58,531 bases of DNA, filler included, from Circinaria calcarea (GCA_051942165.1; 6 parts of 6 records of this genome joined end to end with filler, not necessarily neighbours in it), one strand, 5' to 3'. Shown: positions 9,702-48,889, counted from the whole stretch's first letter. A program made the numbers and translations. The notes: generated by a model from the sequence alone, not told the origin.

Positions 9702-9801
9702 NNNNNNNNNNNNNNNNNNNNNNNNNNNNNNNNNNNNNNNNNNNNTTAATTAATTAANNNNNNNNNNNNNNNNNNNNNNNNNNNNNNNNNNNNNNNNNNN
9801 N
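9702..9801. other. Artificial contig linker (N44-TTAATTAATTAA-N44)
   Basis: Identical 100-bp spacer with a six-frame stop cassette, repeated five times in the window. Confidence 0.98.
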
Positions 9802-12504: not shown

Positions 12505-13506
12505 TTACCCCAGTGGGCACTATGGTGCCCCCAGGTACTTGACCACGTCGATTCAGTCTCACCCACTGAGGGTATATATATCTGGATATTTGTTGCCTAG
12601 ATAGTCTTGCATGTATTTATTGAGCAGTCTAACTGTTGGTTACCCAATATAATATCGTTTCCGCAATTTCCCCTATATCTCTTACACCTTGCCTGTATCT
12701 TCAGGCGCGCTCTCTCTCATCCTGCTCTTCTGACATATGAATCACTGGTCGGTTATGAGCCGGCCGTAGATCCAATGCCGGTGGTGGGACATCTTCCGGT
12801 CGTAACGGCAAGTATTAATGGTGCATATGGGGTGAAAAGGCTTGGTGAAAGTATATTGAGAAAGCTCAAAAGTATAAGCAAAAGTTCGTGGCGAAATCAA
12901 ACAATACAACACTAGAGGGACCCTCATATATATATCACCGCTGGAGGCCAGACACCACTTCTTGCAATCCTTCACATCACCGCAGAGACCGACTCGAGTA
13001 ACGATCGATAACTCCTCTGTATACCATCGTTTCTGCCTTCTCTAGCAAGCATGTGCCAGCGGGTTTTGCGGCAGGATAGATACGTTGATTGTTCGAAGCC
13101 TTCACCCGAACACGGTTGGTGAAGCTGAATACCGTTATGGTAATGGTACGATCATCCTTTGACCTCGACCGGTTCCAAGTCTGGATTCAGGGTCGAAGTA
13201 GGCAACGTCTCGAGCTCTGAACAAGGGTGGCTTTGCCGGAGCAGCGGCAGAGTATTAGTAAAGGGAGACAGCGGACTTGGACCGAGAAGAAAAACCAGTC
13301 ATCTATATTTCTATCGCTGGCTCCCAAGCAAGTCTAGCTACTGCTCTTCCTCTCCCGAGGAGCATTCAAAGGTTCAACTCCTGGATCTGATATTTTAATG
13401 ATGACGAAGAAATAGATAGCTTCATTTCCAGCTGGAATTATCCGTAATTATGTGTGTATGATGTGCATGGCTCATCATCAAACTTGCCAAATTTCGTATC
13501 GAATCC

Positions 13507-14480
13507 TTACTCCTCTTCCGACTCGTCCGAATCTTCCGACTCTCCCGAAATTCTTGAAGTATCAACAGGACTCAGCTCTCTTGAGGGCTCGACAGATATC
13601 CATTGCGACCCCGGGGTCGATACCGTGTTAGCAAACGCTGACATCGCTTGACCTATTTCTTCTCTATGTTGGCACATCAAGTACCAAAGGTATAATAACT
13701 CGAATGTATGGTTATCAACTTCCTCCCTTTGAATTCCCCTAAATATCTCCTCTCTATTATAGATAGCAAAGACCTTGCCTTTATAAGGCCCAAATCGTAT
13801 ACTAGAGATATTTCTTTCGGTCTGATCGACGGGCGAGTCTTTCACTCTCTCAAGCTCGTGTATATGATCCGATTTTTGCTTAAGCCATCCTCTTTCCGTG
13901 ATCTCTTCGACGGTCAACGAAAGGCTAAATTTTCGAGCCAATGTGATTAAATAGGGAAAGGTCGTTGCCATTCTTACCTTGCGCACCCGCGCCAGCCAGT
14001 GTACTTGAGAGATTTTGGGGTTCTGCCTCCACGCATCACCCTCTTCCCATGCCTTCATAGCAACATCAAGTTTAGCTCGTAGTTCCTTGTTGATATCCGT
14101 GAAACTGGCGTTAACTATATCGGCTGCTTCCGGGTCTAGATGACATAAGACATCGGTATGATAGTTGGGGGGTAGTTCGAGAATTGGTTCGTTAAACCAC
14201 TTGGACTGCTCATCGCGTCGAATCCATAACTGGATGATGATATGTTGTAAGATGGTGGCATGGTTCAAATAGCCAAGGTGAAGATAGGGAAATTATTTAG
14301 GAGATGTAATTAGAAGTTGAAATTGATAGATATTCCATCTATTCCCATTGTAAAAAAGATGATCCGTGTGTTTAATGGTCGGGATCTTATCGCAAATTTG
14401 AAAGTCGTTGTATTCGGAGGTATAACTTGCGTAGAAGAAGAAAATCCCTCTGTGGCCGCGCGGTCCTGCTATACCAGTAT
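13507..14480 (-). pseudogene. SNF2-family helicase-like relic
   Basis: QLWIRRDEQSKWFNEPILELPP resembles the SNF2 'MLRR..G.PI..LPP' segment, followed by ATTFPYL (HP.L-like). The upstream frame is broken by TAA stops in AT-rich sequence. Confidence 0.4.
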
Positions 14481-15112
14481 TCTTTTTTAGGGGGGCGGGG
14501 GAACTATAGTAATCGATTAAAAGAAAGATTGACAGCCTCTTCTAATCTACGCCTCATTTCTATTCTTCGGAGAAGATAATTCCTGGTGCCCGGTCGTTTA
14601 TCCGGTGATATAGTCGGCTTACCGGTGGACCTATTAGCAGCAATCAATAAATCCCACGGCGGCCCTGGTATTGGTAGTGCTGGTGATCTTGGTGGAAAAT
14701 ATAAAGGGCGTGGCCGAGGAAACTGAGACCAGTGTGGAGAACGACTTCTTGTATAAACGACGTGCCAGGCGTGTAGAAGGATATTTAGATGAAGAGGATG
14801 GGATGCGGGCCCAGCGTCTGGAGAGACATCTGGATATCCTAATCAATACCATAACAGTGAAGGACCCTCTCATATATATATCACAGCAGGCCAATAACAT
14901 AAAACTTTGAGAATATAAATCCTGTCTTAAGGAACTCGAATCATAGGTAATAGGAATGGAGCACCTTCAGTCATCATTGTCTTTCAGCGGCAACGACGTT
15001 CGCACACCAGTCTCGAACGATTAGATGCTGGTGGGAGGTTTGATTTGGCCTGCCACGAAAAGAATTAAGGGGGAAATGTTGGGGAAACTTATACCTCTGA
15101 CTCCAACCCAAA

Positions 15113-15252
15113 TTCATCCATCACAATCACTTCATCCCGCACATAACAATTATTTCATCCCGCATCACAATCACTTCACCCATCTATTACAATCCCTTCA
15201 TCCCGCACTTCACAATCCCTTCGTCCCGCACTTCAAAATCCCTTCATCGCGC
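15113..15252. repeat. Minisatellite, ~6-7 degenerate copies of a ~21-23 bp unit
   Basis: Consensus TTCATCCCGCACTTCACAATCCC, repeated in tandem. Confidence 0.8.
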
Positions 15253-15490
15253 CCAAACCCCAATCTCTATTGATGAGCTCCCAATAACGATTCTAGTTTA
15301 TCTGCGGCGTAAAGCTTGCTCTACAACCTGCATCTAAAGCGCATTGGCAAACGCAAGATTTCTCATATGGGTCTCCTTGTCTACATAGTAAGGAGGCCAG
15401 AGCCACGGGTAATCTAATTATAAAGAAATAGACTCGGCGTAATTATTGAATGCATGGGGCCGTACATAGGTTTGACCTAGTGTTGGTGGA

Positions 15491-16920
15491 TTAAACATGG
15501 GCCCAACCGTTGGAGACCAAGACCTGCATCTCATTGATCAAACAGTAAAACCCAGGCTCATGTCGATCTTCCACGCTCCCCTTGCTCCACTTCTTAATTC
15601 TTCCTCGAACAAGCCACGCCTTATGGGAAGTGAAGGTCGACCAGCGGCGAAAGCGGTTCTTCCATATGCCGCTTATCTTGGTAGCGGTTGACGGCCAACA
15701 GGACGATGGTGTATGAACCGATTTATAGGCATCAATGCTGTAGCCTACACGTACCTGTGGATTTAGCCATACACCTTGGTCGTACGTTAACGGATTGTCA
15801 GCGTGGATGAGACAGCACTCGGAACCTTCGAGATGCTGGGCTGCGAGAGAATCGGAGATCCCACGGAAGCGAAGCGGAGAGATGCTATTGTAGAACGGTC
15901 GGGCATCGAAGGCAGCTGTTATCTGGTCAGAATCCTTTCAGTTGGCAGGACCATATTGGGAAAGACCCGGAACTCGAAGTTCAACAAGAAAAGCACATGT
16001 ACATGTAACGTGAGGTTGGTAACAGATCAACTTACCAATGCCATTCCAGCAACTTTGGACCGGCACGGGTTGTCCAGAAATCATAGCATTCCTAGATGCT
16101 CTGGATCTGAAGTAGGGAAAAGTTGACATTAGGGGCTCGTGGCCTTCAGAATCCCTCAGAACAAATGTATCATAATATCCTGGAGGGTGCATGAAATCCA
16201 TAGAGCATGCAGCCGCATAATTGCCTTGACGGGTATCTAAGAGAGTCATGATATCTTGGGTCTAAGTCACTGTATTAGTGACGGCGTTCTCCATAACCCG
16301 GACGTATGTAATATGCATACTGTAAAATAGACATCATTCAGGAAGAGGACTTTATCGAATCTGATACCGTTCAAGGCCAGGTTGATCATTGGTTTCAAGG
16401 ACAGGTTCCGCAAGTTCGCCAGGTAGGGTATACGCCTCAATTCTTTCTTCCCTCTCAGAGTGTCGATCCATCCTGTTTCGGCGGGAGACTTTGCAATCTC
16501 ATCAACATGGGTGGTTTCGCCAAGGACGATAGTTCGCTGAACCCCCAGTCGCGCCAGATCCTGATCCAGCAGGCTCAGAGCACCTTTGGAATCGTCCCAG
16601 CTGCCACTCTCGTAGATCGATACGTAGACATTCTCAGGGCCAACATGCTGTGCGAGTTCTAGGACAGCTTTGTTCCAGAAGTCCAGCAGCTTTACTTCAT
16701 TATTCCAGTGTGTGCTGGCTATGAAAATCTTAGGGGTTTTTCCTGAGTTTTCTGGCACAGTGAAACATGATTGGCCCGAGAAATTCTGTAGCAGTAAAAG
16801 TAAATCAACGATAATCAATGCACAGAACGCAAGGAGAGAAGATCTGATATATCGAGCTCGTACACCACGGCGGCGAAAGGAATGCCGGAGCAGTTCCAGC
16901 CATGAGGCTGAAGGCTTCAT
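15491..16920 (-). CDS. Glycosyltransferase family 69 (CAP59/Cmt1-like alpha-1,3-mannosyltransferase), 3 exons
   Basis: N-terminal TM, KIFIASTHWNNE, VSIYESGSWDDS, RRIPYLANLRNLSL, KVLFLNDVYFT|TQD (intron 16262-16320), AACSMDF, YYDTFVLRD, VQSCWNG, HLEGSECCLIHADNP, and C-terminal EPGFYCLINEMQVLVSNGWAHV*. Confidence 0.9.
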
Positions 16921-19489: not shown

Positions 19490-19589
19490 NNNNNNNNNNN
19501 NNNNNNNNNNNNNNNNNNNNNNNNNNNNNNNNNTTAATTAATTAANNNNNNNNNNNNNNNNNNNNNNNNNNNNNNNNNNNNNNNNNNNN
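19490..19589. other. Artificial contig linker
   Basis: N44-TTAATTAATTAA-N44. Confidence 0.98.
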
Positions 19590-21338: not shown

Positions 21339-24318
21339 TCATGGGTTCTGGAGGCAGAAAATCCTAAGCTCACGCTTCTTCCGCATCGCGATGTATTGCC
21401 CAGAATTCGAAAGCCAGTATTCGTCAAACTTTCCAGCAGCCAGAGAGCAGACGACATTGCCATTTTTAACATCCACACATACGACTTCGTTATCGATCGA
21501 CTTAACCTTTCCCCGCCCAAACTTTCCTAGAATAGCTCGAGCAGGGTTTTGCAGGGTTGCTGCGAATTTGAGGTTGGCGGAAAATATTGTTTTTTCGATT
21601 TCGAGGTCGAAGGATTCGGAAGGGAAAAGGCCGATCGAGGCCAGTTGCGTTCGAGAGTGCAAGTCGTGTAAAATCAGAGTTCTTTTGGATTTCTCCCACA
21701 ATGCCGCGACCCACTTATCATCCCATGATGTAAACGCTAGGCGCGGATATCTGACCACGATATCCCATGGCTCCATCCAAGCTCGTCGCCCTTTGTCGAA
21801 CTTCTCGTCACAACTGGTCGTGGCCCACTGTATGATGTTCTGATCGGTGTTATTCGTATAATGATTGACCAAACGGATACGTATGTAATTCTTTCCCTTG
21901 TGAAGGGTTGACCTCTGACTACTAACCGCTAGCTGACGGTTGTCTGGGGAAAAGCCAGCCAGACAGTCAGAATTCCCCACGCTGGCTTGGGTAGGTGGTC
22001 CCCGGACCTTCCCCTGTGCCGTGAGAGACACGATGAATATTAGCTCCTCGAACGAGTCTGATAAGGTAGGTCGACGTCTTGTTACACCAAATGCGACATG
22101 TTTTGAATCGGTAGACACCGCAGCCACGCCAGTAAGGATCGGCTTCATCATATTCTCCGAACGACTAGCAAAGCGATAACCATCTTGTTCTGTTAGTGGC
22201 GGGAAAAGGATATCAAACCGACTTCCACCATTTTGTACGTGGTAGGAAGTTAGATGGGATCTCCAACAGACGAGCAGGTTCTCCCCACTGGGCGCAAAGG
22301 CGAATTTGGGGAAATTAAAGTGCCATTCCGTTTCGGCTGACTCTGGGATCGTTTGAACTTTGTTGCCGGAAGGTAATGCATAAATGGTGATTCTTCGATT
22401 GTCTTCGACGGCGAGATACTTCTCATTGCTTGAAATTATTGCATTGCGTACGTTGGTTATTGGTACTGTCAAGATGGAGTCAGTCCAACCCAGTTTGTTC
22501 ACTTGCTTTACATTGATAGGCTCATCAGCAGCATGATGCAGGCTGTTCACCTCGGCTGGTGTGGAAGCTTCATCACACTGTATCTCGCTTATGCGAAGTT
22601 CCAGCAATGTGGTCAGTTGCTTCAATTGAGAGGTTAACTTGGCTGCAAATTCGTTCAATGGATTAGGATCATCAAGAAAGTTGATGGTTCGATTCATTGT
22701 ATCATGAAGCGATTCTACTTGAGAACGATCGGCAAAGAACCTTGATTGCTTTATGCGAGGATCAAGATTCGTCGTTGTGTCGTCTCTGGTTATTAGAAGA
22801 TCAGCCAGGTGACGGAACTTCTCCCATTCCATGATTGTCTCGGTGTCATCAACCCGCCACTTGATAGACCTGAAAGCTGCATTCAAAGTCAAGTAGCAAG
22901 CTTCAAAAGAGATAGCGCTGAAGCCTAGGGTGATTTGACTAGCCTTTAGTCGTTCTTCCAGTTGGACAACTAACATCTGACGGATCAACGCCACAGATTT
23001 TGAGATGAGGCCGTCATGAGCATTGGCCATCTCATTCAACCTTCTATCCACGGCTGGATTGAGAGATCTTCTGTGGAAGAAGGTTCGTGTCGTCAGAAAT
23101 CCCTGCTTTACAGAGCGCGACTCTCGAAATTGTGCAAGAGAATCGCCTCCTTCAGCCATGAAAATGAGTATTTCAAGCAAGATACAGCCTAATGACCATA
23201 CATCACTCGCTCTGCTGACGATCCCTTTCGAGAAATCCAGCTCAGGGTCCTGGCACTCGGGCGCAAGATAGTGACCCTGGCCCATCTTGAATGGAGTCCG
23301 AGAGTCTTCTGCAGTCTTGAGCTTCGAAAGCCCAAAGTCTGAGAGAATGAACCGCCCTTTGGATACAAGGATGTTCTTTGGTTTCAGGTCGTGGTGGTAT
23401 CCAATCATTTCTCTGCCAAGCACATCGGATTTATACTTGTGCAGTGTTTGCAGTCCGGAAGCCAGTCCAGACATTGCTCCGTAGAACTGTGCATTTCGGG
23501 AGAAGTCTGTGGGCCTGCCGTTTTGAGTAAGTAGGTGTTCCAAGTCGCCTCCTTCGGCGAGAGGCAATAAGAAGTTTGGGATCCCATTGTATGTGTAGGA
23601 TGTTAGGAGTGGAAGAATGCTCGGATGCTCCAGGTGATATAAGTAGGACATAATTTGGTGCTCATTCGATCCAGCTTCAGCCCAGAGGTCGCCATCTCCA
23701 AACCCCTTTCGCAGCTCCTTCCGCACCAAGCGAGCTGGCTAAAACCCATTAGTGTTGTTAATTTCAAATCGACATATACAATACCTGATTCCTGTCTTTG
23801 TCCTTGAATTTGTGGTGACCAGCCGCGATCACAATTTCATAAACATCTCCGAACCCTCCACCTCCAATCCTTCGCGATTCGACGAAAGGAAGCGTCATCT
23901 CCGCCGGTATACTACGATGATGGAGACGGTGAGTGAAGACAGGAGCCATGAAAACCCACTGATACTCGCAGAACTCGCTAGCAATGCTTGGTGACAAAAT
24001 CTTCTCAAGCTCCGACTTTGAGAATGGCAGTGAAGAGTCCAGCTTCTGGATGTCGGACGGCAGATAATGTTCCAAGAGCGCGGCAAGATGCTTCTCTTCC
24101 CGTATCATGATCAGTGTTGCAAAAGCCTTTCGACCGCCTCTCTCGATAGCATGTGTCATCCCTTGCACCGCATAAGGCTCGACATCGCAGTGGTCTGTGA
24201 GTGACTTTCGGATGATCTCTGAAGAGAGCACAGTTGCTAGCGAGCCTTCGGGGACGAACCATCGCCCATCGATGTTGCGGCAGCGGGCGTCCCTGATCTC
24301 GTGACGTATCACATCCAT
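21339..24318 (-). CDS. Ser/Thr protein kinase (~977 aa): N-terminal extension, kinase domain, helical linker, C-terminal WD40/beta-propeller-like region; intron 23739-23784
   Basis: GGGGFGDVY (exon 1), LVRKEL (beta3 Lys), NEHQIM (alphaC Glu), HHDLKPKNILV, SDFGLS, YLAPE, SDVWSLGC. The C-terminal part has repeated propeller-like blades (AFAPSGENL, AVSTDSKHV, GFSPDNRQLAV, IFSANLKF, LSNSGQYIA). The intron GTATTG..ACTAAT..TAG keeps the frame. Confidence 0.92.
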
Positions 24319-24573
24319 TTAATCGGATTTCTACGTGTATACGTTTGTGGATATAGGAGTCATCGACAAGGCTGAGAGCAAATAAGGATGCACCGATCTT
24401 GGCAATGGCGAGACCAATCACATCGCCGACACCCCGCAACAGTCGGTAATTCTGCAGAGGATATAATACAAGGTATCAATCGACAAGGTAATATCTGTTC
24501 GTGCTTCCGCCCGACTGTCTCACCAACTCTGAGCATCTTATCTGTCCCCCAGTTGAACTTCCGAGCCCCAACG
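24319..24573. promoter_or_regulatory. Probable bidirectional promoter (255 bp) between kinase and microprotein genes
   Basis: Head-to-head ATGs at 24318 (-) and 24574 (+); TATA-like GATATAATA near 24460. Confidence 0.55.
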
Positions 24574-24847
24574 ATGAATCAAATACTCGAGCAAAGATAC
24601 GTCGACAAGCAAAAGTTTTTTTCCTTGTTGTCAAGGTTGTTCGCAAATGGCACCTTCTCTGTGGAGGCAAGTTTTTCCTTATGGAGTTATATTACCGCTG
24701 TATTAACGCTCAGCAGGATACTGGAGAACATTTTATCATGACCCTCCCAAGAGGCCTCACCCAGGCAAGTTCTACCAATTACCATAGGTGCCATACTAGG
24801 TTCTTAAGGTAGCCTAGGACGAAATCCAGTCGGTGAGATCGGAGTAG
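24574..24847 (+). CDS. 56-aa microprotein, 3 exons (24574-24666, 24717-24764, 24818-24847), two GC-AG introns
   Basis: Spliced product MNQILEQRYVDKQKFFSLLSRLFANGTFSVE|DTGEHFIMTLPRGLTQ|DEIQSVRSE*. Both donors are AG|GCAAGT and both introns are phase 0 (50 and 53 nt). Intron 1 has a TTAAC branch and CAG acceptor. Confidence 0.75.
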
Positions 24848-24865
24848 GATCAGGGGTCGAATATA

Positions 24866-26434
24866 CAGTACTAGGCCAGAAAAAGTGGCACGGCGGGAAA
24901 ACCGGCCACCCCTCACCAAAATTAGGCTAATTTCTCTGCGCTTTTCTACATAACTTAATGAGATAATTGAAAGCTAAGAAACTTTTGTTTACGTGGTACA
25001 TGGTGTAGCAGCCCGTCGGCTGGTTTTTTTGGTGGTTTTGAGTGGCCTAGTACTTGGTACAGCACCCATCGGCTTGAATTATGGCTTCGCACCTCCTCGG
25101 CATACTCCTCACCAAACTCCTCATTAAATCCCTACCTATCAAAACCCATGCTCACTTCAAAGTAACGTATAACTCATCCAGAAGATGTTGATCCATCCCC
25201 TGTCATTCACGGAGTCCTGGGTTAAGTCAAAGGCCATGTTTTTCAGCTCATACCAGAGGTTTTTAAATCGGGTGAGATCTGGGCTATAGGTTGGCCATTG
25301 CATGACGTTTATACCGTGATCACTCAGCCAATCCAGTACCCATTGCGCACGGTGGATCGGAGCGTTATCCTGCATGAAAATGGGACCCGGCTGGCCAATG
25401 AAATCCTCTTAATCGACAAGCACACCAATATACGAGGCCGCTGTATATCCACCTCTTCTTCCTTTAGTATCACGGCTCATCCTGAGTAGGTCGGAGCGTC
25501 TCCCTCCTCGAAAAGCTGCCCAAATCATAACGCTAGGTGCCTTTCCTTTATGAAATGGTTCAATGATATCTCGGTCCTATTTCTGTTATGGGGTACAAAA
25601 AACCCATTGCCGCTTCCGGCCGGTTCCTAGCTCCACAGAACACTTATCACTCCACACCACTTTACGCCACTGATTGTAAGTCCAGTGGCGATAATTATAT
25701 GCACAGGCAAGCTCTTTAAACGATATAGCTGGTGTAAGAAGCGGGCGCTTTTTAGCTATCCATTGGGTGATCCCTTGCTCTTTTAGAAATCGACGTATTG
25801 TACGAGGAGAAACGTCGATTTGGAGGTTATAGAGGAGTTGAGAGTAAGTGATTTGAGGGTCAAACCGGACAGTTCGAAGGATTACTCGTTTGGCACGTTC
25901 GCGAAGCTGTTATCGACTTTCTGAGCCTTGTTGTCGATGATTAGAGCCTATTTCTTTCCATCGGTTTATGACGTTTTGAATGGAGCTTTTCGGAAATTTT
26001 TCGGATCTTGAGATTCGACCAAGGCTACACCCGTTTTCCCACACCCCTATAGTTCGTCCCTTGCTTAATAGAGTACAATGCGTTTGCTTTACATACCGTG
26101 AGCTCCGTGAAGTACGAGGAGTCATGGTTGTGGAGTGGAAGTGGTTGGGGAAAGTGGTATTGGTTTGGTCTAAATCATGCGTGGGGAAAAAAAACGGTCG
26201 CTATATTCTATTCAGAACCTTGGCCGGAAAATCGTTTTTCCGGTAGCTTGGATGCCTACTCCAAAAATTAAACATCTTTTAAATACTTTATTATTATACT
26301 TTTATAATAGTTCAAAACTTAAGAATATTTCTGCAATAAAATATATATATTTTCTAGGTGGAGTATCCAAACGCTGATTTTTTCCAGCCAAGAATTTTGA
26401 ATATAGGGGTATTAGTTTTTTTGGCCGGGCACTG
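24866..26434 (-). mobile_element. Tc1/mariner (Tc1-like DD34E) DNA transposon, degenerate, flanked by TA
   Basis: TA|CAGTACTAGGCCAGAAAAAG at the left end versus reverse complement TA|CAGTGCCCGGCCAAAAAAAC at the right end (15/19 identity). Contains a transposase pseudogene. Confidence 0.8.
25046..26125 (-). pseudogene. Tc1-like transposase pseudogene
   Basis: HTH region, AKKRPLLT, WRKVVWSDKCSV, SVMIWAAF, FMQDNAPIHRA, WPTYSPDLTRFKNLW, ADGCCTKY*. Multiple in-frame stops and the catalytic Glu is lost. Confidence 0.9.
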
Positions 26435-26582
26435 TAGAGGGCTGAATTAAATATCTTAAATAAGTAATAACTTATTTTTAATTTCATCATCTCTGCCCAG
26501 TCTTGTGGCGCTTGCTCACAGTCTATGTATTCGTATATAGTTAAGATTGACTAACTCGCTTCTGCTTCTGTATGAAAGAGAA

Positions 26583-28417
26583 TTAGAGGCGTCCGCGGCA
26601 ATGTCGCTTTTCCAATAGAATAGACAACCCCAGCGTTAATGCCGTACATCCAAGCGTGACAATAGCATATATCCAAAATTGTGGACTAATGACCAATCGA
26701 TTAGGTGAAGAAACAGCGCCTCGTGGCTGCGAATTGATCAGGTTGGAGCTAAAAATAGTCTATCGCAATTCGTGTCAGTATATCTCACTGCTCAAAATGA
26801 CACGAGAGCCCATATTTACCGCAATGAGTGTCGCAGGAAGGTACACGACTGTGATTCGCGTCAGCGTCTTCAAATTGAGTGTGTGCTCACGATTTTGTCG
26901 TGCCAGTTGCAACATATCGCCGCTGTCTGTACGTGTTGCTGCCGCATTCTGCCCCAATGTGAGCATGCTTGCCTCGAGGGCCTTGCTACTGCGCCTGATT
27001 TCATCTGTGAGGTAGAAATCGCAGATCTGCTTCAAGTAAGGCACGACTTAGCCTGTCTTGAGATTTAAGCATTTATCTTTCCGGCTATGCTTACAAGATC
27101 TGCCGTCCCATTTGAGGACTTTATGAGCGCGCCTATAACACTCTTATAATAGTCGAAATGATCAATGAGTTGCCTCATCTCGAGATGAATTGTGGGGTCC
27201 TCAGTGCAAACATTGGCCTTTTCAATTTCTGCGCAATGGGTGTCGCAGCTGTTGATGGTCGCTGAGATGCTTCCGAGTATAATTACTGAACGACGCAATT
27301 TGTGACGAATCTTTTGAAGTTGCTGACCATCAGAGAAAGAGACCCTGTAATCTCCTGGCGGTGCTTTGCCAACACGGGAGAAGCAGGCTTTTTCGTCCTG
27401 AAGGAACGTTATTCGCAAGGGCACTGAGCCTTGATGATCAAATGACCAACCAATGATTGCAAGGCCAAGCGTAGCTGACCAATATAAGCCTTCCAATGCA
27501 CTTGAGCAGAGCCTAGGAAGACGAGATGCGGCGCCATAAGACGGAATGCCACGTCGCTTGACTGCAGACAGATATTTTTGAACTGGTGCAGTACGGCATC
27601 GTTGGGCTGAATCAGAATCCACGTTGAGCAGCCAGTCCTGATGTCCATCTTCTGATAGACGGCCGTTTGCCGGATAGACCATTGGGAGCCTTCGGCTCGG
27701 CCGTTGTTGATCACATATCGAAAGGTGTAGGCCATCTCTTTGATTGGGCCCAAACAGTCAGCATGCATGCTTTTGATCATCAGGTTCGTGAAGCTTTGAT
27801 AATCATACCGTATCCCAATAGCTTATCAGTGCAATTAGGGTCCCAGGTACAAACTCGATGACAGCCCTCCCAGACCTCGTCGTCGTCATTTTGACGGAAG
27901 CCAAAGGCTTGTACGCAGTCCAGAAAAGATAAGAATACACGATTGATATTGAGGATGTTGAACATCAGATCTCTTGTGATGTTGAGATTATCCCAGGTGT
28001 ATTTTTGCCTGATTATGCTGGGTGTCTTCTCAAAACATAGGTATTGTCATGTCTAGATGATGAGAGCTCACTAGATCATGTTTTTGGCCTCACTTCGTAA
28101 AGACTGCGGCAAGTTGTCAGTCACATTTGAAGGGTACGACAATGCTATAGCCTTACGTACTTGGACAGTCGGAATGAGGGTTTTCGCGGAGTGTATACTC
28201 GTGATCATATCGAAGACTGCCCGCTATCAACATATGGTAGGCTGATTAAACTTAGAAGGAGCCTTCCTTTGCCATCCTTGGGCCATGACATCACTTCCAC
28301 GCTTCCTTGGTCCTGTTTGAAGACCCTTGCAGAGTCTTGCAGAATCCGCTGACGGTAAATTTCGGGGACCGCGACGCATGTTCGGCTCTGCGTCTGATTC
28401 ACAAAATATTCATCCAT
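26583..28417 (-). CDS. Fungal CorA-like protein: large soluble domain + two C-terminal TM helices, ~7 short introns
   Basis: IIRQKYTWDNLNITRDLMFNILNINRVFLSFLDCVQAFG, EMAYTFRYVINNGR..WSIRQTAVYQK..STWILIQP, DEKACFSRVG..DYRVSFSDGQQLQKIRHKL, LKTLTRITVVYLPATLIA|TIFSSNL (intron 26760-26819), FWIYAIVTLGCTALTLGLSILL. The first intron donor is not cleanly resolved. Confidence 0.82.
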
Positions 28418-29262: not shown

Positions 29263-29362
29263 NNNNNNNNNNNNNNNNNNNNNNNNNNNNNNNNNNNNNN
29301 NNNNNNTTAATTAATTAANNNNNNNNNNNNNNNNNNNNNNNNNNNNNNNNNNNNNNNNNNNN
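29263..29362. other. Artificial contig linker
   Basis: N44-TTAATTAATTAA-N44. Confidence 0.98.
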
Positions 29363-29380
29363 GCCCGGCCAGTCGCATCC

Positions 29381-30576
29381 TTAAGAGGACGCGCCAAGGC
29401 AGGGCTGCAAGCCAGAAGACGTCGCAGCAGACTGATGCGGAAAGTCGAGGGCGGAGGTGGCGGAGGAGAGGAGGTCGAAGTGATCTTGGCTGTGCTGATC
29501 GTACCCGTCGAAGGTGATGAAGGTGTCGTCGGTGTCGTTGCCGCCGAGGTGAGAGGATTGACCGGCGTCGAGATCAACCATTGAATCAAATGAAAAAGCA
29601 TTGGCGTCATCCTCGTGGTTGTCGGTAGCGGCGAGCCCGTCTTCAAAGAAATGAAGATTTGGTTGAGCGGATGCAGGAGAGTCGAAGAGACGGCCGAAAG
29701 AAGAGCCAGAGAGAGGTGAAGTTGCGTAAGCGTGAGCAGAGCGCGCATCGGTGGAGATAGAACTTCGTCGTGAGGTAATGTCGCTAGAGTTAACAACGGG
29801 CGCCAGGCTGCTCCGGACTGACACTGCAGGCCACACAACATCGCAGCAGGATGTTGTGTCATATCCGGAGAGGTGGCAGACCCGTTGTATTCTCTACGAG
29901 TAGGCGACGGCGATCGTGACGATGAAGAAGATGCGGAGGAGAATGATGAGCGAGGATCGAGGGTGTTCTGAGGTGAAGGGAGTGAGAAAGGATAATCCTC
30001 CAGTTCTTGTTTGATAGCCTGATCGTGCTGTAGGAGATCGGCGGTGAGGGTAGGTGACGGTGGGGAAGATGAACTGGGAACTTTCGAAAGTTGCTGGGAG
30101 GTAGCACCGCTCTTCAACAGTGCGGCTGCCATCTTTGCAACTTGTTGGGACAGCCTATACTTGTCATGTTCAACTTGCATGAGACGCTGCTTGAGCATGT
30201 AGTTCTGACGTTCGATGGCGTATTTCTCGCCTTCGAGCTTCTCGACTTCTTGCCGCTTGCGCTCCCGTGATGACTGAGCAGCTTGACGGTTTCGGAGGAC
30301 ACGCTCAATGCGACGCTGTTCCTTTTCGTCTTCCGTCTTCGCCCGTTTGCGAGGGGGGAGGTTCGTCTTGGGTGTTGGCAGCTCTTGACCCCACGACTTT
30401 CGCTTCTTCGTCGGCTTCCTCTCGCTCTCATCGTGCTGATTGACGGCCGTGAATGATTCCGGAGAGGTCGGCGTCAGCAGAGATGTCTCGGCCAGAGAGA
30501 TGGTGGCTGGAGGCCCGCCATAGTATTCGGGGGTGGTGGCATAAGCCCGGAGAGCTTCGAAGCCGCTGTTGTTCAT
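29381..30576 (-). CDS. hacA: UPR bZIP transcription factor HacA/Hac1 (induced form ~391 aa after removing 20 nt at 29827-29846; the uninduced frame runs off the contig)
   Basis: KKRKSWGQELPTPKTNLPPRKRAKTEDEKEQRRIERVLRNRQAAQSSRERKRQEVEKLE; DMTQHPAAMLCGLQCQ at the unconventional intron. The shifted frame AVSVRSS.. ends at 29381. Confidence 0.95.
29810..29870 (-). promoter_or_regulatory. Ire1-cleaved unconventional 20-nt intron with flanking stem-loop
   Basis: Minus strand ACACAACATC-CTG|CTGC-GATGTTGTGT (10-bp stem, 7-nt loop), a second site CTG|CAGT, and outer pairing CTCCGGA/TCCGGAG. Confidence 0.9.
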
Positions 30577-39035: not shown

Positions 39036-39135
39036 NNNNNNNNNNNNNNNNNNNNNNNNNNNNNNNNNNNNNNNNNNNNTTAATTAATTAANNNNNNNNN
39101 NNNNNNNNNNNNNNNNNNNNNNNNNNNNNNNNNNN
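39036..39135. other. Artificial contig linker
   Basis: N44-TTAATTAATTAA-N44. Confidence 0.98.
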
Positions 39136-48789: not shown

Positions 48790-48889
48790 NNNNNNNNNNN
48801 NNNNNNNNNNNNNNNNNNNNNNNNNNNNNNNNNTTAATTAATTAANNNNNNNNNNNNNNNNNNNNNNNNNNNNNNNNNNNNNNNNNNNN
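48790..48889. other. Artificial contig linker
   Basis: N44-TTAATTAATTAA-N44. Confidence 0.98.

Follow-up and report, generated by a model that had tools for sequence, protein, structure and literature searches.

A linked kinase, microprotein and CorA-like gene in Circinaria calcarea as a candidate kinase-centred unit of fungi

The locus and its three genes

Analysis of a 58,531-nucleotide stretch of Circinaria calcarea DNA (GCA_051942165.1; hereafter the window, meaning this stretch at its full length) revealed a compact group of three genes on the contig at 19590-29262. These genes encode a protein kinase (minus strand), a 56-aa microprotein (plus strand) and a CorA-like membrane protein (minus strand), with a decayed Tc1 element between the last two. 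From their linkage at related but rearranged loci, we conclude that the three genes very probably form one co-functional unit centred on the kinase and inherited together. The layout had been proposed in an earlier note on this DNA, read from the sequence without database searches, and it was borne out almost to the base. The features are as follows.

21339-23738, minus strand: kinase exon 2 (799 codons plus stop), encoding the bulk of the kinase domain, followed by a helical linker and a ~430-aa C-terminal domain
23739-23784, minus strand: kinase intron (46 nt, GT..AG, phase 0; the joined frame is open)
23785-24318, minus strand: kinase exon 1 (178 codons), encoding a family-specific N-terminal domain of ~145 aa and the glycine-rich loop
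24319-24573: head-to-head spacer from the kinase ATG to the microprotein ATG (255 bp)
24574-24847, plus strand: microprotein gene (56 aa), with exons 24574-24666, 24717-24764 and 24818-24847 and the stop codon at 24845-24847
24866-26434, minus strand: decayed Tc1/mariner element (1569 bp), with flanking TA, remnants of DDE_3 and HTH_SB, and TACAGT.. ends
26583-28417, minus strand: CorA-like gene (~459 aa), with exon 1 from 28417 to ~28232 (junction unsure)
28028-27809, 27737-27451, 27397-27095, 27026-26820 and 26759-26583, minus strand: the five downstream exons of the CorA-like gene, with clean GT..AG introns

The spacer measures the 255 bp that had been claimed, and the positions of the convergent stop codons (24845-24847 and 26583-26585) agree with the further claim that the microprotein and CorA-like genes would end only ~165 bp apart if the Tc1 element were taken out.

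The kinase gene

The two kinase exons encode a product of 977 aa with a strong match to Pkinase (PF00069; E 3.7e-22, 79.4 bits against a cut-off of 31.7). The catalytic motifs GGGGFG, LVRK (with the beta-3 lysine), HHDLKPKN, DFG and APE are all present, and H115, H116, D117, P120, N122, F135 and G136 are invariant across 24 members of the kinase family. Because every catalytic motif is kept, the kinase should be active. At least 91% of exon 2 is covered by 23 of 102 homologues, at 30-94% identity, and the exon 1 region is conserved in 11 related loci, with tblastn in agreement.

The terminal domains are less familiar. No Pfam match was found for the N-terminal domain (residues 1 to ~145), nor for the C-terminal 433 aa at E up to 1. 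PD40 repeats were found in the full-length kinase relatives P0007, P0011 and P0027, and the nearest neighbours of the C-terminal part in language-model feature space were WD40, ANAPC4_WD40 and PD40 clusters (0.92-0.93). On these two grounds, the C-terminal ~430 aa probably form a divergent beta-propeller. The suggestion that this part is a WD40 sensor therefore holds in part: a propeller-type C-terminus is probable, but it is a divergent one, and neither WD40 nor any other Pfam family matched it in the window protein. Kinases of sister lineages (L002, L007 and L013) carry DUF7580 as their C-terminal domain in place of the propeller.

The microprotein gene and its family

The three microprotein exons give exactly the 56 aa proposed in the earlier note. 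Its introns, of 50 and 53 nt, both have GCAAGT at the 5' end (24667-24672 and 24765-24770); the relatives examined have GT donors in this gene, and two GC-AG introns in so small a gene are unusual. The three-exon splice pattern is identical in every relative examined, with the exon consensus M..QVLE.RYIDK.KL..LL..LF..G.F.VE / ..D.Y.L.LPR.LT. / (E)EI..V.. followed by the stop.

Searching 1.84 billion representative proteins with a profile of exon 1 returned 323 microprotein clusters at E up to 0.001; among the 150 of these that were listed, all members were 34-184 aa long and none was fused to another domain. The spliced product was also found as one contiguous open reading frame (ORF) in six sequences (P0159, P0143, P0146, P0238, P0171 and P0229). 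P0159, from a public assembly, is an ORF of 56 aa equal to the spliced product and is the orthologue of the window microprotein. These six mostly lie on contigs of 0.9-3.5 kb (P0146: 6.4 kb) from JGI, Logan or ENA, within an overall range of 0.7-3.5 kb for short contigs with spliced forms, which suggests, as the simplest explanation, that they derive from transcripts.

Among the family members looked up, names were limited to one 'hypothetical protein' at NCBI (Letrouitia) and two at JGI. Five members gave no significant Pfam match, and none was recorded on 28 listed relatives. The best profile match in the PDB (E 0.078) was at chance level. AlphaFold2 modelled the microprotein as a beta-alpha-beta-beta-alpha domain with a predicted local distance difference test (pLDDT) score of 70.4, and a Foldseek comparison of this fold with the PDB gave a best E of 0.41, with none at E up to 0.001. 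Two entries for NrN, an enzyme found alongside the CorA effectors of bacterial CRISPR loci, stood among the chance-level Foldseek rows (E ~0.6), which we regard as coincidence. Judged by the conservation of its sequence and exon structure, the microprotein represents a real, conserved and largely unannotated family that has no accession.

The CorA-like gene

The window CorA-like gene was aligned to an intron-less relative in L002. Two hydrophobic stretches, encoded in its last two exons, correspond to two C-terminal helices that follow a large cytoplasmic domain. The nine homologues found for exon 3 (62-95% identity) all carry the precomputed PF26616 'CorA-like' assignment, which was thus made through homologues and not by scoring the window exon itself. 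Scores for PF01544 stayed below the cut-off of 27 bits for the window exon (13.6), the Cladonia homologue (15.8) and the C-terminal half of the L002 relative (26.2).

The junction between exons 1 and 2 is unsure, as an in-frame TGA lies at 28207-28205 and only the weak donors GTTGAT or GTCTTC reach exon 2. A relative ~94% identical differs from the window by single-base indels at 28265 and 27794 within the CorA-like coding region; one of the two copies may be frame-shifted, or the indels may be contig errors.

Linkage of the trio across related loci

Conserved linkage provides the main evidence that the three genes belong together. A scan of JGI metagenome contigs, based on 24 aligned full-length kinases, gave 298 stretches that matched the search pattern, 209 of them encoding relatives. 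The best 80 of these 209 kinase loci, with up to 10 kb on each side, were kept and fell into 55 groups at a nucleotide identity of at least 88%. Within 10 kb of the kinase, a CorA-like gene was found in 22 of the 55 groups, a microprotein gene in 11 and both in ten. A hidden Markov model (HMM) of microprotein exon 1 accounted for the 11 groups (22 loci), and a twelfth group, L004, has a frameshifted copy. The frameshift of this copy (L004:1547-1844, plus strand) lies inside exon 1 and may reflect a pseudogene or a sequencing error; the neighbouring CorA-like and kinase genes look intact as far as the 4.2-kb contig reaches.

Recognition of the CorA-like gene was not uniform. In 19 groups it was found by tblastn or clustering, and in three more it was strongly diverged and was recognised by its exon pattern and C-terminal motifs. 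This diverged gene ('family X') adjoins the microprotein in L015-20, L026-30 and L061-62, and has the end motifs ..LT.VFLP.TF.A.. and ..FWIY.VVT... Profile-profile alignment to the CorA-like family was not significant (probability 0.3%). Its exon pattern, C-terminal motifs and language-model feature neighbours (0.91-0.92) suggest that 'family X' is CorA-like, on grounds weaker than a profile match.

The linked loci were placed on a kinase-domain tree of 54 groups and the window (L041, whose match was too short, was left out). They correspond to four kinase clades that lie on both sides of the tree and show only 25-50% identity; the window clade (8 rows) includes both beta-propeller and DUF7580 forms. 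Among groups with at least 10 kb, a CorA-like gene was present in 16 of the 17 belonging to the four associated clades (all except L069) versus one of seven for the other kinases. This exception, L041, has neighbours typical of a permease-linked clade described below. The four clades were named after the tree had been seen, and the Fisher value of 3.5e-4 is descriptive only. Apart from L041, no CorA-like gene was found in ~170 kb around non-associated kinases, which is the sole measurable background.

At least four gene orders and orientations were observed among the linked loci.

Window: CorA-like gene, microprotein converging on it, kinase diverging from the microprotein
L001: tandem array of the whole trio
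L006 and L067: microprotein gene transcribed away from the CorA-like gene, in divergent orientation
L007-10 and L013: microprotein gene immediately 5' of the kinase, both on one strand
L015-30: tandem pair of microprotein and CorA-like genes, the microprotein gene diverging from the kinase
L048-52: kinase followed downstream by the microprotein gene

The earlier note had proposed measuring co-location of the trio within ~10 kb, and these counts and rearrangements point to linkage beyond chance. Because the linkage survives rearrangement at kinase identities of 25-50%, we favour a co-functional unit over leftover synteny.

A fusion of microprotein and kinase, considered for L048/51/52, was ruled out: a stop codon closes the kinase ORF, and ~800 nt further downstream lies the microprotein homologue, with its own Met and an N-terminal extension.

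The best named relatives of the trio proteins come from the lichen-forming ascomycetes Polycauliona, Pyrenula, Cladonia and Letrouitia. In Polycauliona, the kinase (46% identical) and the CorA-like protein (62%) have adjacent locus tags and accession numbers. In relatives ~94% identical to the window, all three genes are found together on one contig, of 6.4 kb in one case and 7.1 kb in the other. Two further kinase/CorA-like pairs (15,017 and 111,405 bases) and two kinase/microprotein pairs (12,202 and 19,551 bases) each share a source and a contig size, suggesting but not proving that the members of each pair lie on the same contig. In addition, divergence of the microprotein tracks that of the kinase across 12 loci (Mantel r 0.67, reached by 0 of 5000 permutations), indicating that kinase and microprotein have travelled together, as linked genes would anyway.

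A predicted complex of microprotein and kinase

The complex model took as input kinase exon 1 (178 aa) and the first 300 aa of exon 2, with P0159 as the partner. The interaction prediction score from aligned errors (ipSAE) was 0.65, 0.65 and 0.63, compared to 0.02 for the best control, and the runs showed contact agreement of at least 81% and partner pLDDT of at least 83. In calibration, 51 of 78 solved complexes passed the ipSAE mark, as did 2 of 108 mismatched pairs; our job departs from that calibration in presenting the kinase as two chains and in using eukaryotic proteins.

In the model, the microprotein strand at residues 28-35 pairs by strand addition with kinase exon-2 residues 214-218 (FLTTR), which belong to a C-lobe insert. 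This insert, located between helices F and G, is conserved across the family and varies from clade to clade. Further modelled contacts involve residues 152-156 (the P+1 loop before APE), K121 (catalytic loop) and G154 (glycine loop). These results suggest that the microprotein is likely to bind the kinase, and the model with its controls supports the earlier proposal that it is an adaptor or inhibitor of the kinase. In most homologues, the loop turned towards the active site is acidic, and it lacks any conserved Ser or Thr; the model therefore supports a pseudosubstrate-like regulatory subunit, a 'safety catch', rather than a substrate.

Neighbouring genes at related loci

Beside the cassette, a fourth gene recurs that encodes another protein kinase, with TPR_10/TPR_12 repeats fused to it (TPR_12 E 1.1e-45). 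It was found in five sister groups of the window and in L028 outside the clade. TPR_10 and TPR_12 are of a repeat type common in fungal sensors that resemble NOD-like receptors (NLRs). Its positions are as follows.

L002:13255-16562, plus strand: kinase-TPR gene
L006:5418-8825, plus strand: kinase-TPR gene
L007 and L009: kinase-TPR gene at 12810-15820 (plus strand) and 5469-2406 (minus strand), respectively
L013:5112-2167, minus strand: kinase-TPR gene
L003 and L028: kinase-TPR gene also present

The kinase and CorA-like genes of one well-supported clade of kinases (11 groups) have an amino-acid permease gene as a further linked neighbour (AA_permease_2, E 4.9e-55 in L034). This permease linkage was seen in seven groups (L024, L031/33, L034, L037/39, L041, L065 and L066/70/71), six of them within the clade and the seventh being L041. 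Neither the kinase-TPR gene nor the permease gene was found in the window.

The Tc1 element and the rest of the window

The claim that a Tc1 element intervenes between the microprotein and CorA-like genes was upheld by its DDE_3 match (E 1.3e-8), an HTH_SB fragment, the flanking TA and an empty site in a relative, the contig of which joins 24863 to 26433 without the element and with 137 other letters at the join. The transposase reading frame is fragmented. The imperfect terminal repeats were read by eye, having been missed by the inverted-repeat finder. The element is inserted 17 nt past the microprotein stop codon, and no second copy was found elsewhere in the window.

The window itself consists of six contigs of ~9.7 kb joined by artificial N44-TTAATTAATTAA-N44 linkers, across which no inference is valid.

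9702-9801, 19490-19589, 29263-29362, 39036-39135 and 48790-48889: artificial linkers

The flanks of the contig that carries the trio matched nothing in the related loci fetched here. On the next contig, a 421-aa ORF at 29311-30576 (minus strand), which runs into an artificial linker, holds the basic region of a basic leucine zipper (bZIP) protein; this region seems to resemble that of the unfolded-protein-response factor Hac1/HacA.

Discussion

A probable kinase-centred unit and its possible mechanism

The linkage and modelling results suggest a scheme in four steps. First, an active kinase would be restrained by the microprotein encoded beside it. Second, the variable C-terminal domain of the kinase, propeller or DUF7580, would read a signal and release or re-position the microprotein. 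Third, the kinase would phosphorylate the cytoplasmic domain of the CorA-like two-helix membrane protein, and fourth, this protein would open or assemble as an oligomeric cation channel or pore. Sequence and model suggest the first two steps, and linkage suggests the last two. The resulting ion flux could serve stress or non-self signalling, possibly up to cell death.

Our confidence in this scheme falls from one part to the next. That the CorA-like protein is an output controlled by the kinase is a tentative proposal, to which we give slightly less than even chances, and the same holds for the full chain in which a kinase held by a small subunit controls a CorA-like channel or pore. Cell death or immunity as the outcome is plausible, and we consider it rather unlikely. 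The swapped sensor domains and the kinase-TPR gene lean towards a role in surveillance or death; the amino-acid permease linkage in another clade leans towards control of transport. The most novel form of the proposal is a new class of fungal module for regulated cell death or innate immunity, widespread in Pezizomycotina including lichen fungi. Here a sensor kinase with swappable domains would be kept off by a pseudosubstrate microprotein and, once triggered, would phosphorylate a CorA-fold protein that becomes a lethal cation pore, in a necroptosis-like manner that involves neither MLKL nor HeLo and is convergent with bacterial CRISPR CorA effectors. We regard this form as unlikely, a little more so than death or immunity in general.

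Several observations weigh against the scheme. The ipSAE mark, a measure of model confidence, was in the tool's own test also reached by 7 of 44 neighbouring genes picked blind. Related kinases inherit their neighbours by descent, so the linkage has few independent origins, and in the permease-linked clade the microprotein gene was found in none of the seven groups with at least 10 kb, a few weak exon-1-like matches aside (for example L033:14769-14987). At the window itself, the transposon is located in the 3' region of the microprotein gene, the uncertain first splice junction means that the CorA-like gene may be impaired, and no RNA run contains the stretch, the best holders being DNA contigs of relatives ~94% identical. 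A coupling of kinase to CorA-like protein, physical or enzymatic, is a proposal drawn from the linkage of their genes.

The nature of the CorA-like protein raises a further set of objections. The GMN motif is absent from the CorA-like proteins of the window, L002, Cladonia and Polycauliona, which have ..IFSSNL.. at that place. A phmmer search of the PDB with the L002 relative gave no match to solved CorA sequences, the only row being at chance level (E 0.11). The AlphaFold2 model of this intron-less relative (9-row alignment) had a pLDDT of 46.3, with helices at 409-430 and 452-484, and was too poor for a fold search. By its sequence, the window protein is thus a member of a fungal CorA-like family and not a demonstrated CorA channel; because the model failed, solved CorA proteins gave no match and GMN is absent, channel activity is an assumption.

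Alternative explanations

Regulation of transport is the likeliest of the alternatives, and we consider it improbable. In this alternative, the kinase and its small subunit would tune a CorA-like divalent-cation transporter, and in some lineages an amino-acid permease, for nutrient or ion homeostasis with no role in death or non-self recognition. It draws on the seven groups in which AA_permease_2 is linked to the kinase and CorA-like genes, on the CorA fold being that of a cation channel, and on kinases that regulate transporters being common in fungi. However, SSN replaces the selectivity motif GMN, and the swaps of C-terminal domain together with the frequent kinase-TPR neighbour look like diversification of a sensor and not like housekeeping. 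The permease link, moreover, is limited to a single clade and could simply be orthologous synteny.

A functional pair of kinase and microprotein, with the CorA-like gene as an old syntenic neighbour not directly coupled to them, seems to us less probable again. The modelled contact of microprotein and kinase is the sole supported physical link, the PF26616 family is large in ascomycetes, and linkage within a clade is inherited and not independent, all of which would fit such a pair. This explanation has difficulty with linkage that persists through at least four orders and orientations and at kinase identities down to ~25-35%, with the lack of CorA-like genes in the ~170 kb around non-associated kinases (L041 excepted), and with L001, L006 and L067, in which the microprotein adjoins the CorA-like gene and not the kinase. 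The possibility that the small ORF is promoter-associated noise or an upstream ORF, and the trio an accident of the contig, would fit the non-canonical GC donors of both introns, the lack of an RNA run and the transposon 17 nt past the stop codon, but is very improbable: 11 locus groups share the exon structure and a conserved amino-acid sequence, the 1.84-billion-protein library contains 323 clusters, and spliced products are present as contiguous ORFs in several assemblies.

Comparison with known systems

The window CorA-like protein resembles CorA, Mrs2, Alr1 and ZntB (PF01544) in having an N-terminal domain on the cytoplasmic side, long helices and, at the C-terminus, two hydrophobic ones; it differs from them in having SSN for GMN and no significant match to solved CorA proteins. 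No function was found on record for PF26616 proteins. CorA-family effectors encoded in bacterial type III CRISPR loci are activated by a nucleotide signal. They share with the cassette the use of a CorA-fold membrane protein as the output of signalling, whereas they are bacterial, respond to nucleotides and involve neither kinase nor microprotein; no relation by sequence was seen, though none was searched for.

Small kinase-binding subunits and pseudosubstrate inhibitors include PKI for protein kinase A and Cks1 for cyclin-dependent kinases. Like these, the microprotein is a protein of 50-80 residues placed, here by prediction, on the kinase C-lobe and substrate site; unlike them, it is encoded beside its kinase, and neither a sequence match nor a fold match was found. 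Among Pezizomycotina kinases, those with DUF7580 (PF24476) share the N-terminal and kinase domains, with 35-47% identity over the kinase part, and the forms in L002, L007 and L013 have the same microprotein and CorA-like neighbours as the window kinase, which differs in having a probable beta-propeller instead of DUF7580.

The logic of a kinase that switches on a membrane-permeabilising cation-channel protein recalls RIPK3/MLKL and the fungal HeLo/HELLP proteins, as described in passages of a 2025 review of fungal cell death (PMC12881547). There is no homology to these pairs, the candidate executioner being an integral two-helix CorA-like protein and not a four-helix bundle, and the cassette lacks an amyloid motif and has an additional small protein predicted to bind the kinase. 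Fungal two-gene death clusters, such as those pairing an NLR with a HeLo or amyloid effector or a protease with a gasdermin (het-Q2/het-Q1), likewise place a candidate activator beside a membrane-targeting effector (as far as covered in passages of PMC12881547), with sensor domains of repeat type (here beta-propeller and TPR) nearby. The cassette differs from these clusters in that its activator is a kinase and that its role in death or incompatibility is hypothetical. It also differs in its domains: Pfam searches of the kinase, of related kinases and of the adjacent kinase-TPR gene gave no match to NACHT or NB-ARC, and none to HET, HeLo or gasdermin domains was found among the trio proteins and relatives examined.

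Novelty and meaning

The earlier note had claimed that no functional description of the trio exists, and we found none in the literature searched, which was the open full-text literature (subscription journals and supplements being outside its scope). This literature contained nothing on a CorA-like protein with a kinase in fungal incompatibility, on CorA-like proteins in Pezizomycotina or on CorA as an effector domain of fungal NLRs, and did not mention DUF7580. Likewise, CorA was not mentioned in the passages seen of the 2025 review (PMC12881547) and of two NLR surveys (PMC4986451 and PMC12258605), where every 'cora' was part of 'coral'. Within the literature searched, then, neither the cassette nor the microprotein family has been described.

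Fungal cell death and non-self recognition have so far been attributed to NLRs acting with HeLo or amyloid effectors and to pairs of protease and gasdermin. Neither a kinase-driven fungal death module nor a role for the large PF26616 family was on record in the literature searched, as far as its passages covered them. The cassette is defined by three profiles and can thus be searched for in any ascomycete genome. It brings with it a new microprotein family that gene callers mostly miss and a concrete predicted site for the microprotein on the kinase. Should the unit gate an ion pore, fungal signalling or immunity would gain a new branch; should it regulate transport, the cassette would provide the first functional handle on the PF26616 proteins.

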